From the NCBI GenBank assembly GCA_963693365.1, contig CAVNZM010000008.1:3935572-3999571 (forward strand): 64,000 nucleotides of DNA, in the 5' to 3' direction. The notes below the pieces were generated by a model. It searched no databases. It had not been told where the DNA came from and was given only the letters and a program-made list of their open reading frames with translations. Position 1 is the stretch's first letter. Each line of letters begins with the position of its first letter. Origin of the DNA: Amoebidium appalachense. Lineage: Eukaryota; Protista; Ichthyosporea. A program made the translations under genes and the position numbers. Shown in pieces: positions 44,001 through 50,000 of this stretch.

Positions 44001-47000
44001 TGTGCACGGGGTATATATATATATATATATATATATATATATATATATATATATATACACACACACACACGCCATCGAAACTACAACCCCCCCCCCCCCC
44101 CCCCCCCCCCCCCCCCCCCCCCACACCACCACCAAAAAAAACCTGAAGTAGACCTTTTTGTCTACCCAAAAGAAATCTGCCTGTGTGCTTCCAAGACAGC
44201 CCGAGTGGAGTGGCCCAACATGTACCACAAAAAAAAAAAAAAAGAAAAGAAAAAGAAAATACAGCACACGCTTCCTACAATCGAATTCTCAATGTCAGGG
44301 GGAAAAAAAGGAAAATACGAAAATCAGGATTTTCAAAACCGAAAAGTCGTTAGAAAATAGGCACGGCGATAGGCCCACACAAACCATCCGAGCCATGCTC
44401 CCCATGCTTGGATAGTCCATAATAATTATGATAATGGCTTCTTTGCTGGTCAAATAGCACGGCCTTGACAATTTGCCCGTGCCTGTGTGCAAGCGTGCCT
44501 GTGTGCCTGTGTGCTGTGTGCTTAATAAATATCAGCCTGCCCAATTCCTATATGCCTGCACTTTCGAAATCCTTATCCTTTTATCCTTTCCTTTTCTTTT
44601 TTATTCCTTTTCTTTTTTCTTTCTTTTTTTTTGTGTGTGTGTGTGTGTGTGGGGGGGGGGGGGGGGGGGGGGGGGCTGGTGGTAACCTTTCTGGGCTGTG
44701 ACGGCTCCGGTCTCTGTCCCTGTCTCTCCCGTCATCTGTTCGGACCAAATTTTAGTCTCACGCCTACAATCTCCCACCCTCCTATCTAGCCGATGTCAAA
44801 TCGCAGAATTTTCCGATTGCATGAGTAATGCCTCATCGCAAAATGAAAAAACCTGAAGTTATGGCGTTCTAATCGACACCAAAGAATGAATAATCTCACA
44901 AGAAGTGCCCAATTAGTCGCACAAGCAGTACTTAATCGTGTGCAACTCGTGACAAACCCAACGAAAATGCACGTGTCAAGGCACGAATGTGCACACACAC
45001 CCATTCAAGTGTATGCACATCCTCACACAAAGTACCCATCCCCCAAAAGCCATTCACCAGGAGCCAGTACCCGATCCCAACCACCACCCACCTGCCCACA
45101 CACCCATCCCCTCAAAATGCACACACACGACGCTCCCACACACCCGCACACCCTCTCACTTGCACATGCACACCCACCCACCCACCTCTCCTGTGCCTGT
45201 CTTCCTCCGGCGCATCCAAATCACGGTAGCCTCCTCGTCTCTCACTCTGTTTGCAAACAAAAGTCAAACAGTATCCCCCCCGCCCCCTCCCCCTCCCCCC
45301 CTCCGAGGGCCAATATACCCCCCCCCCCCCCCCCCCCCCCCCCAAAAAAAAAAAAAAAAAAAGAAAAGAAATGATTCTCACATTCACACACACACGCAAG
45401 CGTGGCGCGCGCGCGCGCACACACACACACACACACATAAACGCCCTCCCAGCCCATTCCTCCCCCCTCCCCCCCCCCCCCCCCCCCCCTCCCCCTTACA
45501 CCCACACCCATACCCACAACCACATCACCCTCACCCACACCCACGCCCACCCACCCATATGCCCATCCATCCAACCCTCCGCCAACTCACCCACCAACCC
45601 CCCCCCCCTCCCCCCCTCCCACACACGCACACACCCACCCACCCACCCATCCACCCCCCCCCCCCCCCCCCCCCCCCCTCAAACCCCCACCCACCTGTTT
45701 TGGCTTCTCCTCCTCCTCCTCCTCCTCCTCGTCTTCCAAGTCCAGGTCTTCAAGATCGTCTTCGAGTGCACTGCGCCTTGGCTCCAGCTGAAAGCGTAAA
45801 AGAGAGGGAAGAGGTGGGGTGCGGGTGGGGGTGGGGGGGATACATGAATATGTTACCCCACCCCCATGCCCCCACACATATCCACCCAACCACATGCATT
45901 TCCACCCACCAACACCCACACCCACAATCTCACCTACCAGAACAAGCATCCTCCCCCCCCCCCACCCACACCCACACACACACCCACCCCTCTATATACA
46001 CAGCCTCGCCCAGCACGTGTATTTTCTGTAATCTTGGCAGCTCTATGCCACACACCCCCAACCCCACGACATCAAAACTTATGCCGCCGCCACACCCACA
46101 CCCACACCCACACCCACATGCACACCCGCCCCTTCTCCCCTCCCCCCACCCTCCCCCTCCCCACCTTCATTCACACAACTTTGCCCAGCACAGCAGATTT
46201 CTCTTCTGCACCCGTGGCAGTTGGACGTCACACACCTGCACACAGACACAGACACAGTCACAGACACGGACACGGACACGGACACACACACACACACACA
46301 CACACACACACACACACACACACACACACACACACACACATACACACACACACATGACCCCTTCCTTCCCAACAAAATACACATACACTACACCGTGCCC
46401 TTATCCCCCCCCCCCCCCCCCCCCCGCGCCCCCAAAAAGGGAAAAAAAAAAAAAAAAAAAAGAAAAAAGAAAAGAGAAAAAGAAACAAAAAACTGCCCCC
46501 CCCCCCCCCCCCCCCCCCCCTCTCCCCCTCCCCCCACACCCCCCCCCAACACACACCCACCCACCCACGCACACACCTCCCCCAGCTCCTCCAGCACGTG
46601 TCTCTTCTGCAACCTCGGCAGCTGTATGTCGCACACCCTCTCCTCGTGCAAGAGCTCATCCACAAACTGGTCCACGTTGAACGCCTCTACCTGCCCCAAT
46701 TTGTTTTTTCGCCTCACACGACGGAAATCGTCGTATAATGGTTCAAGGTACTGTGTGTGTGTGTGTGTGTGGGGGGGGGGGGGGGGGGGGGGGGTTTGAA
46801 TGCGGAACACGGTACGAAGTACGCATACACGAACGACAAATGCAAAGGCAAACATTCAAGTATGCAACATCAGCCATGCGCACAGCATGCGTCATAAGCA
46901 GAGCCCATCCTCAGGGAGGGCCCAAGTCATCAATTGCGTCTGAGTTTCGACCCCTTAGCCCGCGTATATACGACTCTCCAACTCAGACAGCAGCATCAAC

Positions 47001-50000
47001 TGAACTTGGGAGGGTCAACCCGTCTTGATCAAAGACGAGCAGGGTTGCTTATGCAAGCAAGGTGAGCAAAACGGTGAATAGGTGTGTGCAAACTAATGCA
47101 GTGCAGCGGAAAATGAGTATGTGCTTACAGATGCACGACACAGAGCAACCATGCCCGGTTGCATGGAAGTAAAGCGGTCTCCACACAGTGGTCTGTCCTG
47201 AAAGGACACCTCTGAAAGAAGACTGGGGGGGTTTGAATGCGGAACACGGTACGAAGTACGCATACACGAACGGGGGGGGGGGGGGGGGGGGGGGAGGGGG
47301 GTGTGTGTGTGTGTGGGGGGGGTTTGAATGCGTCAAAAAGTACGAAGTACACAAGAACAAACGGATAACACGATGCAGAATGCAAGCCATACATAAAAGA
47401 GTATGCATAATAAGCAGAGCCCATCCTCAGGGGGGGGGCACGTCATCCACAGTACCCGAGTTTGTGTGTGTGTGTGTGTGTGTGGGGGGGGGGGGGGGGG
47501 GGGGGGGGGGGGGGGGTGTGTGTGTGTGTGTGGGGGGGGGGGGGGAAGGTGTGTGGGGGGGAGGGGGTTGGGGGTTGGGGGTTGGGGGGGGAGGGTGAGT
47601 GAGTGGGTGAGTGTGTGTGTGTGTGTGCGCGCATGTGCATGTACACGTGTGTACGTGTGTGTACACATTGCCTCGTTTACTTCGTTTTTATGTGCGTCAA
47701 ATAACCAGAAAGGGGAAAAGTGAGAGAATTGGTGAGAGGGGATCCATATTTTCTTGCTTCATCCATGTTAACAAAAAAAAAACTTGTGGATATCAGATAT
47801 TCGAACAGGCAATCTTGTACACCAACACATGCACGTACGTAAACACCCCCCCCCCCCCCCCCCCCCCCCCCCCCCCCCCCCACACACACACACACACACA
47901 CGCACAAACAAACCCACAAACACACACAAGCACACACAAACAGGTGCACAAAAACAATCACAGGCACAAGGACAGCAACATTCCCAGGTATACCGGGAAC
48001 GTCACACACACACGTGGCTCCCAAGAGAAAAAAGTAAGGAAGGGGGAGGATGTGTGTGTTGTGTGTGTGTGTGTGTGTATGTGTGTGTGTGTGTGTGTGT
48101 GTGTGTGTGTGTGTGTGTGTGTGTGTGTGTGTGTGTGTGTGTGCGGGCTTTGGGGGGGGGGGGGGGGGGGGGGGGGGGGGGGGGCTGGCTCAAACCTTGT
48201 AGCAGTCGAGAGCTGAGCCGGTAAGCCTGAGATATATTGCACCCAATAATCGAACATACCTGCATGAGAGCATGAAAAGGGTGTTGGTGAGCAAGATTAG
48301 AAGACATATTGAAGACACGGTATGAAGATTGACAAGGGGGAGGGGTGTTTTGGTCGCAGGAAAAAAAGGGACACACGGGGAGGAACGGTGCAAAAGTTGT
48401 GGAGGAAACGGAACCCAAACGTTAGACGGACAGAAAGACATCAGCAGGCGGAGAAGGTCAGTGGTAGCATTCTTCTTTTCTTTTCTTTCTTTTCTTTTCT
48501 TTTCTTTTCTTTTCTTTCTTTTTTTTTTTTTTTTTTTTTTTTGGTTTTTAGTGGTTGGGGAGGGGGGGGGGGGGGGGGGGGGGGGGGGGGGGGTTGAATG
48601 CGTCATAAAGTACGAAGTACACATAAACAAAGGACAACACAATGCAGAGTGCAAACCATACCTAAAGAGTATGCATAATAATAATAATATTGGGGGGGGG
48701 GGGGGGGGGGGGGGGGGGGGGGGGGTATATGTGAGGTATGCATAAAGCAAAACGAGAAATAGAGATTATATTATGCATCGCATACTTGTAGTCTTCGTTG
48801 CATAAAGCAAAACGAGAAATAGAGATTATATTATGCATCGCATACTTGTAGTCTTCGTTCTTGATGAACTCGATCACAATTTCCTTATCGGGCTGGATCT
48901 GCAGCATCTTAAGCAGCAAGCAGAGAAAGGGTGTGGGCTTGACGTTGCCTCCAAACACACCCCCAAAGTGGTTCAGACCCACAGCCTTGTCAACAAGCGT
49001 CTCCGCTGTGTGTGTGTGTGGGGGGGGGGGGGGGGGAGGGAGGAGGGGCACGGAGGGGAAAGGGGGGGGGGGGGGGGGGGAGGGGGGTGTGTGTGTGTGG
49101 GGGGGGAGGGGGGGTTGGCGGGAGGGAGGAGGGGCACGGAGGGGAAAGGGGGGGGGGGGGGGGGGGGGGGGGGGGGGGGGGGATTGTTTAGTACTGTTGT
49201 TTGTTAAGCTTGTTATGGTTAAGAGTATTTTTTGGTTTGCTTGTTTGCCTACTGTTTTTGTTTGTTTTGGTGAACAGGAAAACGGGGGGAGAAGGGGAGG
49301 GGGGGGGGGGGGGGGAAGGTGTGTGTGTGTGTGTGTGTGTGTGTGTGTGTGTGTGTGTGTGTGTGTGTGTGTGTGTGTGTGTGCGCGCGCGCGCGTGTGT
49401 GTGTGTGTGTGTGTGTGTGGGGGGGGGGGGGCAAGAGACGAAGGGAGGGAATGATATATGGTAATAACAGGAGGGTGTGTGTGTGTGTGTCGGAAGGGGG
49501 GGGGGGGGGGGGGGGGGGGGGGGGGGGGGGGGGGGGGGGGGGGGGGAGGGGGGGGGGGGGAAGAGGGGACGGAGGGGGGGGGGGGGGGGAGGACATGGGC
49601 GGGGGAGGAGGGGAAGGCGGGCTGACTTGCAGGCAAGCGGGTGGGTGGGGTGGAGGGGGGAGGGGCGGGGGGGAGGGGGGACAGAAAGAGTGAACGAAAA
49701 CGTGTCTACTGTGATTATGACACTGGTGGGCACCCAACTCACCTGTCAAAGCAAAGCAGTCTTCCTTCCAATAGCGTGCCTCGTAGATGCGCAGGCGAAT
49801 AATTTTCTCCATAAGGTGCTGTGTGTGGATTAAAAAAAATGTTAGAAAGGTGGTGGCAAGTTTTTTTATTTTTTATTTTTTTGTTTTATTTTTATTTTGT
49901 GGGGGTGGGGGGGGGGGGGGGGGGGGGGAGGCGGGTTTATGTGCGGAACAGGGTAGAGTATGCAACATAGGCGGAACCGATCCTCAGGAGGGCCCAAGTG

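Follow-up and report, generated by a model that had tools for sequence, protein, structure and literature searches.

How could a hammerhead ribozyme work if the two halves of its catalytic core lay at opposite ends of a long helix? This question is raised by repeats in a 64,000-nucleotide (nt) stretch of the genome of Amoebidium appalachense (contig CAVNZM010000008.1, positions 3,935,572 to 3,999,571; hereafter the window, with coordinates counted from its first letter), where an earlier reading of the letters (the original prediction) had picked out a candidate hammerhead with an unusual strand order in two repeat families, A and B. Our analysis indicates that the motif is a real, covarying structure, by its sequence a non-circularly permuted hammerhead with a split core and a kink-turned rod. 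The explanation we prefer, at a little better than an even chance, is a hammerhead ribozyme of type-SGC strand order, its core open between A9 and G10.1, which is carried by non-autonomous Penelope-like repeats and would cut after a GUU triplet only as a head-to-tail dimer. The parts of this explanation differ in firmness. That the motif is a working ribozyme seems very probable; if it is, a split core is more probable still; and, given a split core, modelling makes a dimer rather than a monomer the probable active form, the dimer being a predicted assembly with sequence-based support.

The features of copy B, which we use as a reference, and of the two A copies are as follows:

46893 to 47053, minus strand: copy B, the whole split-core, SGC-order hammerhead-like motif.
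47046 to 47053, minus strand: 5′ strand of the closing stem P0, pairing with 46900-46893 (8 base pairs (bp); three double changes vs. A).
47042 to 47044, minus strand: 5′ strand of P1, CCC, predicted to pair with GGG at 46906-46904, one U after A9.
47018 to 47040, minus strand: P2 hairpin, 9 bp, with the self-complementary loop region UGAUCA (UGGCCA in A).
47012 to 47016, minus strand: 5′ strand of stem II, upstream of all other core parts; G10.1 is 47016, and GACCC (47016-47012) pairs with GGGUC (46953-46949).
47005 to 47010, minus strand: 5′ strand of the I/II helix, pairing with 46926-46921, at the same place as the type-SGC 'I' helix (between the strands of stem II and stem I).
46996 to 47003, minus strand: kink-turn consensus, with C helix UCA paired to UGA (46929-46927), bulge GUU (47000-46998) and GA (46997-46996) opposite GA (46931-46930).
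46980 to 46988, minus strand: 5′ strand of stem III (46988-46981/46945-46938) and GUU triplet, with H17 at 46980 and the predicted cut after it.
46976 to 46979, minus strand: 5′ strand of stem I, GGAG, pairing with CUCC (46918-46915).
46954 to 46975, minus strand: linker joining stems I and II; it contains a 10-nt palindrome.
46938 to 46953, minus strand: 3′ strand of stem II, GAAA (46948-46945) and 3′ strand of stem III.
46908 to 46918, minus strand: 3′ strand of stem I and CUGAGGA (46914-46908).
46900 to 46905, minus strand: GGCUCU, the rival partner for stem II, which follows a 2-nt insertion (6 bp, three of them G-U, in B; invariant in A, B and a third family, C).
4029 to 4186, plus strand: copy A1, with an intact core (G10.1 at 4066, H17 at 4100, GAAA at 4130-4133, CUGAUGA at 4165-4171), predicted cut after 4100 and one broken pair in P2.
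27058 to 27215, minus strand: copy A2, decayed, with GGAA and one broken pair each in the I/II helix and the kink-turn C helix; it sits between aminotransferase exons in sense orientation.

The hammerhead core bases that had been claimed are all present in B and A1, where C3UGAnGA9, G12AAA15.1, U16.1-H17 and G10.1-C11.1 are complete, and the named helices stand at their proposed positions in both copies. A2, also claimed, is indeed found at 27215-27058 and is decayed, with a G in place of A13 (GGAA for GAAA) and two broken pairs. The families were further said to keep the same pairings, which holds for 12 of the 13 pairs that differ between A1 and B, the remaining one being broken: the 44 pairs in the eight helices comprise 31 identical pairs, 11 double changes (including one in stem I, one in stem II, two in stem III and two in the I/II helix), one single change and one broken pair. 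Covariation is thus seen in all three stems around the core, as is characteristic of a hammerhead, and stem II changes further in family C. Pairs were counted from anchors and not with a covariance model, because MAFFT misaligned the rod. With random letters at the changed columns, a mean of 5.2 of the 13 pairs was kept and 12 were reached in 13 of 200,000 draws, a test that overstates significance, the helices having been picked from the same sequences.

A descriptor made of the site, GAAA, CUGAnGA and stems I and III matched two places in the window, A1 and B, vs. 0.05 per shuffle in 100 block-wise dinucleotide shuffles of the window, and none per shuffle once the upstream stem II was required. 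RNAfold alone gave z-scores of -2.46 (B) and -0.76 (A1), values to be expected of a program that cannot fold pseudoknots. The expectation that standard searches would overlook the motif was borne out by an Rfam scan of the window at E≤1, which returned low-complexity matches only, with no hammerhead family among the 150 of 152 matches listed. Exact-pattern matches in 82 metagenome and 26 viral stretches were set aside as chance, none of the 108 having the upstream GAAA context or passing the descriptors. One could imagine that the motif itself is a chance resemblance in repeats of common descent, the independent sequences being few and the helices chosen by eye, but the shuffles, the double changes between B and A1, the stem II changes in family C and the same layout in the tails of Naiad elements (see below) make this exceedingly improbable.

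In both A1 and B, the order from 5′ to 3′ is site, GAAA, CUGAnGA. As originally proposed, this lies outside the circular permutations of types I, II and III; the nested order CUGAnGA-GAAA-site, or a circular permutation of it, does not occur in the motif. The order is not undescribed, as had been thought, but is that of type SGC, found in metatranscriptomes and shown to cleave by Eckert et al. 2023 (PMC10085705; the papers cited here were covered in part, and statements on them refer to the parts covered). The motif resembles type SGC (HRIMA-1 and SGC variants) in its order, full core, U after A9 and a helix tying stems I and II; this helix joins the distal ends of the two stems through 5-6 bp, provided that the upstream stem II strand is used. 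In type SGC, however, stem II directly follows CUGAnGA, whereas in the preferred model of the motif the stem II 5′ strand lies upstream and A9/G10.1 accommodates P1, P2 and P0. Stems I and II are linked by about 3 nt in type SGC (0-8 in the published descriptor) vs. about 21 nt here, and the motif has a kink-turn in a 25-pair rod that distinguishes it from type SGC. Moreover, type-SGC RNAs are at most 104 nt long and metatranscriptomic, with none in genomes of known organisms in the text covered, whereas the motif occurs in eukaryotic genomic repeats.

That extra helices stand between A9 and stem II, another early claim, is backed by sequence evidence, and to this we add the 3-bp helix after A9, the I/II helix, the kink-turn and the rival stem II partner after A9. 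What appears new relative to type SGC is the separation of CUGAnGA from stem II by the upstream partner, the predicted two-helix stack at the break and the conserved kink-turn in the rod. Eckert et al. took CUGAnGA and the neighbouring stem strands as uninterruptible, and their descriptors demand that CUGAUGA(U)G run directly into stem II and cap the linkers at 8 and 15 nt (PMC10085705), so the present element would be missed. A break at A9/G10.1 does not appear in the text of that paper covered here, and a similar variant could stand in the rest of its supplement. Literature searches returned 'type-SGC' hammerheads in Eckert et al. 2023 only and hammerhead permutation in Naiads in Craig et al. 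2021 only; they yielded no report combining a kink-turn, a dimer and a retrotransposon hammerhead and, among the matches listed, none of helix insertion at A9.

The case for a split core depends on the choice between two stem II partners, GAC(C/U)C upstream and GGCUCU after A9 and two inserted bases. Evidence on this point came from public DNA runs. Part of B was found in 20 of the 24 runs listed (five coded organisms, seven studies; none of the runs recorded as RNA) and, of four runs compared, one gave 10452 contigs aligned on B, indicating a high-copy repeat. B's own variants at ≥5% (46920, 46975 and 47011) are all in unpaired spacers and none in the core; the remaining variants at ≥5% in the motif mark family C. 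This family keeps both B ends, with the middle 86 nt exchanged for 80 others (in a single contig), and has UU, GAAA and CUGAGGA in its core, GGG/CCC as stem I, UU before stem I and one altered pair in the I/II helix. One subtype pairs GACCUA with UAGGUC in stem II within run X19 (UAGGUC is also found in single contigs of X14 and X16); the other has GACCCA (X3 consensus) with UGGGUC (X1 and X7 consensus), unphased across runs. It should be noted that family C is read from unphased loose contig ends, with 4 nt of the stem III 5′ strand and position 16.2 outside view. Two contigs of run X20 (loose end at 47014; region 47447-46931) contain an A-like variant with a different stem III 5′ strand, perhaps a fourth family or a decayed copy.

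Wherever its mate has changed, the upstream stem II strand has changed with it and remains Watson-Crick paired, in A, B and both C subtypes. In contrast, the downstream strand stays fixed as GGCUCU while its mate changes, forming 6 bp in A and B, but 4-5 pairs in C, two of them G-U. With the upstream strand, CCCAAG/CUUGGG falls exactly at the place of the type-SGC I/II helix (compared with the SGC-2 oligos). Taken together, these results suggest that the core is most likely opened between A9 and G10.1. In an ordinary type-SGC ribozyme, stem II would instead be formed by GGCUCU after the 2-nt insertion, and the upstream 60 nt would be an off-switch pairing each ribozyme strand. This has some appeal: type SGC has its stem II strand 1-2 nt after A9 and the 6-bp partner in A and B would answer to this, up to two inserted bases after A9 are known (PMC10085705), the energies are similar (-10.1 downstream vs. 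-9.1 upstream kcal/mol in A, -9.2 vs. -11.2 in B), a 4-bp I/II-like helix is possible with the P0 3′ strand, and the P2 foot is able to pair with G8-A9. Nevertheless, covariation speaks for the upstream partner, a downstream one is absent from several Naiad tails, and the off-switch, being transcribed first, would need the same long-range contact; we consider an ordinary type-SGC ribozyme quite improbable.

How would a core split in this way be closed? A single U separates A9 from the predicted P1, and 0-1 nt separate the P2 hairpin from G10.1. We propose that P1 and P2 stack end to end, the nick between them keeping A9-U beside G10.1, and that the core would thereby be closed with no covalent link at A9/G10.1. 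P1 is invariant in A, B and C and is therefore without covariation; Naiad tails have a helix of 4-8 bp at the same place, and the P2 foot, GCUC...GGGU, is common to B and Acropora Naiads.

In B, A1 and C (in C by eye), stem III is joined to the I/II helix through a kink-turn consensus. It consists of a 3-bp C helix that has changed yet remains paired (UCA/UGA or GCU/GGC), a 3-nt bulge and tandem G-A/A-G pairs, at a fixed spacing of 16-17 nt to the core and 15-16 nt to G10.1. The bulge followed by tandem G-A/A-G is shared with known kink-turns (Kt-7, box C/D), and B has U-U at 3b-3n, like box C/D, while A and C have A-G there, with G at 3n. A kink-turn of box C/D type with U-U needs a protein of the L7Ae family (PMC5689011), whereas G at 3n, or A-G at 3b-3n, allows folding in ions alone (PMC4382518). 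Unlike the known examples, the consensus here stands inside a hammerhead rod, and its kinking is predicted from sequence alone. A kink-turn of opposite orientation was rejected, as it fits B only and A and C fit only the other orientation.

One end of the rod bears the site and GAAA; the opposite end bears CUGAnGA together with the stem II 5′ strand. Stems II and III are coaxial in hammerheads. With this arrangement, ideal helices and a kink of 30-70 degrees, we roughly estimated, for straight helices, a gap of ~48-64 Å in the monomer, to be spanned by a linker of 0-1 nt. As the original prediction had pointed out, there are palindromes in the loops: the P2 loop and, in B, the linker are self-complementary. 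The change in the P2 loop from UGAUCA to UGGCCA retains the palindrome, and the centre of the linker palindrome recurs in A2 and in one family C subtype. Among the 1024 possible loops, the dimer gain of the P2 loop ranks within the top 103 in B (10%) and the top 12 in A (1.2%). The gap and the two self-complementary loops lead us to predict a head-to-tail dimer. Stem III and the I/II helix would form one rod of ~25 pairs, bent at the kink-turn, and a single molecule would be unable to join both rod ends. Two copies, in a tandem transcript or as two RNAs, would exchange ends to give two cores, each made of the site and GAAA of one copy and the CUGAnGA and stem II strand of the other, with the two self-complementary loops paired across the two-fold axis. 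Such a ring of two molecules might account for the rod, the kinks and the palindromes on the axis.

The same split-core fold could conceivably close on itself in a single molecule. The rod would then be bent back by the kink-turn and by the junction where the I/II helix meets stems I and II, and the palindromes would serve packaging or have no role. Kink-turns make a tight bend and mediate tertiary contacts (PMC4316175), the G at 3n in A and C would allow ion-only folding (PMC4382518), and type-SGC ribozymes, whose link appears too short, cleave while being transcribed (PMC10085705). However, the stem III arm, at 16 pairs, is longer than the return arm of 8-9, the wrong way for folding back, the estimated gap is wide, and one Naiad rod is nearly straight. 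We consider closure in a monomer unlikely.

This last observation comes from the Naiads. Craig et al. 2021 described Naiads and most Chlamys elements as having no canonical hammerhead and marked 'half cores' (PMC8557442). We searched the consensus file of that paper for CUGAUGA and read 58 of the 62 places by eye; the names given to Naiad tails assume that the file follows the order of table S1. The same split core is present at 8 of the 19 places in the Naiad file (one ctenophore, three Acropora, two octopus, and parts 12 and 19), an unbroken core of type-CSG order at two (nematode block) and neither at nine. No split core was seen in the 14 Chlamys-side CUGAUGA places (45-58 of the 62), nor in the few places viewed with another N7 (places 9-18 of each term). 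Several Naiad tails lack any partner for stem II downstream of A9; those of Acropora carry an 8-bp P1 directly after A9 and the GCUC...GGGU foot of P2, and those of octopus carry a kink-turn. The part-19 tail has a near-straight rod of 15 bp with a single bulged base, which, as modelled, could not fold back. Rod totals cluster near 13-15 or 23-25 pairs, about one turn apart, with the bend shifting along the rod, which would fit a ring of two better than a monomer.

Two further observations on the file (supplement S5 of PMC8557442) concern strand orders. The nematode-block tails (parts 14 and 15) have the type-CSG order CUGAUGA, site, GAAA, one of them with an I/II helix of 12-13 bp; Eckert et al. 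reported just two CSG sequences, both metagenomic (PMC10085705). Circular permutation interconverts CSG, SGC and the split form. Other tails (parts 17-19) have CCCCUGACGA or CCCCUGAAGA with GAAA upstream and elaborate helices unparsed by eye, possibly further variants.

Hammerheads acting as dimers have precedents. Animal Penelope-like hammerheads were described as dimer-active and keep an extra base between positions 9 and 10.1 (PMC4209133, PMC6765202). Dimer-active type I hammerheads and non-LTR (long terminal repeat) retrozymes (PMC4209133, PMC6765202, bioRxiv 10.64898/2026.07.22.740005) resemble the motif in their ribozyme near the 3′ end, palindromes, predicted need for two copies and extra base between 9 and 10.1. 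Those systems are of type I, with a too-short stem III rebuilt across two copies, whereas the motif has a long, stable stem III, a geometric block and core halves at opposite ends of a rod.

Several points weigh against an SGC-order split core that acts only as a dimer. The gap is a crude straight-helix estimate, and for octopus and ctenophore Naiads the same modelling gives 22-38 and 23-51 Å, perhaps closable by one molecule. By analogy, type-SGC ribozymes, with their seemingly too-short link (PMC10085705), and fungal and protist Penelope-like hammerheads, described as monomer-active, would argue for a monomer. The palindrome in the linker is not perfect in A1 or in one of the C subtypes, and some self-complementarity is a property of every hairpin. 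As for the split core, the predicted stability of the downstream stem II partner is about that of the upstream one in A and B, and the core would be switched off if the P2 foot formed 7 bp with G8-A9 and the following bases (-12.2 kcal/mol). Neither P1 nor the P2 foot varies in this genome, so that covariation lends them no support, the comparison includes few independent sequences, and family C is unphased, with the loop-closing pair of P2 broken and 4 nt of stem III unseen. Finally, no autonomous element was found, with 16 of the 163 candidate reading frames scanned, and the window contains no full tandem dimer.

The repeats that carry the motif in the window include the following:

46795 to 47224, minus strand: repeat unit B, ~430 nt, with a C run at its end; it lies in the PRP38 intron 48195-46751 in sense orientation.
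47225 to 47272, minus strand: identical 48-nt copy of the 3′ end of unit B, placed before the unit (the other copy is 46835-46788); a partial tandem, pseudo-LTR-like.
47323 to 47463, minus strand: 5′-truncated family C copy, starting inside GAAA.
3292 to 3434, plus strand: 5′-truncated B copy, starting just before CUGAGGA.
23672 to 23811, minus strand: 5′-truncated B copy, starting at the 3′ strand of the I/II helix.
49930 to 49999, minus strand: 5′-truncated, decayed B-like copy, starting at the 3′ strand of the I/II helix.

In all, 13 3′ ends of A, B or C type were found in the window with a motif requiring four C. Partial tandems or pseudo-LTRs with 5′ truncation, as in Penelope-like elements, are represented by the 48-nt repeat before B and by truncated copies in tandem; the copies end in C runs, like Chlamys insertions at (C)n or (CA)n. 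By analogy, the carriers are likely to be non-autonomous Penelope-like elements. Chlamys targets (C)n and (CA)n, and Naiad and Chlamys share with the present repeats partial tandems, microsatellite targets and non-autonomous derivatives (PMC8557442). No coding element was linked to the present repeats, which target C runs, not (TA)n; the text covered has no description of the split fold. No reverse transcriptase family was detected in the 16 of 163 candidate reading frames scanned, and ARAGORN found no tRNA head (0 genes). A non-LTR retrozyme was also rejected, since the hammerhead is not type I and there is no full tandem dimer in the window.

The four truncated copies start at most ~35 nt upstream of CUGAnGA, at or inside the 3′ strand of the rod, as expected if reverse transcription stalls at the rod. 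The structure would thus affect reverse transcription, and one may ask whether it is a hammerhead-derived, non-cutting fold kept to bind the reverse transcriptase or position its template. In line with this, Penelope-like hammerheads are slow even as dimers (PMC6765202, PMC4209133) and Naiads multiply with no canonical hammerhead (PMC8557442). On the other hand, although the stems change, A, B, C and the Naiads of several animal phyla have retained the NUH triplet and the catalytic bases, not all of which a binding role would require; we hold a non-cutting fold to be fairly improbable. With a cutting dimer, cleavage would release unit-length RNA from tandem transcripts for reverse transcription by an autonomous Penelope-like element, and host pre-mRNAs holding a single sense copy would escape cutting.

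The genes of the window are eukaryotic, with introns rich in C runs and CA repeats and with the PRP38 exons on the minus strand. Most repeat copies (2342-49999) have the orientation of the nearest host gene (PRP38, a class III aminotransferase, a sugar transferase), probably because the intronic C runs are on its sense strand. An exact 60-nt tandem duplication at 48862-48743 (minus strand) spans the end of a PRP38 exon and its splice donor and adjoins a truncated repeat copy; it may be an insertion by-product or an assembly artefact. A long uninterrupted SUA5 frame (TsaC2-type, PF01300+PF03481) at 52791-54200 (plus strand) is found in this intron-rich genome, and its N-terminal extension may be a targeting peptide; for its part 52950-54197, the named matches among the best 120 are early-diverging fungi, with 42-57% identity over all listed matches. 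By these matches the host would probably be a non-animal opisthokont, related to fungi or single-celled in some other way. A 245-amino-acid open frame at 32867-33601 (plus strand) has below-cut-off matches to DUF2306 and DUF6653 and is likely an exon of a membrane protein.

A split core would break the assumption that the CUGAnGA block is uninterruptible, on which the count of six possible permutations and the published search patterns are based, and a ribozyme class would then be invisible to current descriptors and to Rfam. The motif is likely the ribozyme of a Penelope-like family, with two copies predicted to be necessary, and offers a possible answer to why Naiad and Chlamys elements appear to have no hammerheads, extending the fold to a probably non-animal host with C-run targets. 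The A9/G10.1 nick would be a ready port for engineered switches and, if the dimer is obligate, this would be a new way to tie self-cleavage to copy number. In its boldest form, which we put forward tentatively and at somewhat less than an even chance, the motif would be a fourth permutation in the knotted hammerhead class, with its catalytic core open, and would supply the ribozyme missing from Penelope-like elements with an N-terminal endonuclease, in animals and non-animal eukaryotes alike. It would work as an obligate two-copy ring, with two kink-turns at its corners, two swapped-end cores and two palindromic struts, by which the element would count its own copies and cut tandem transcripts only.

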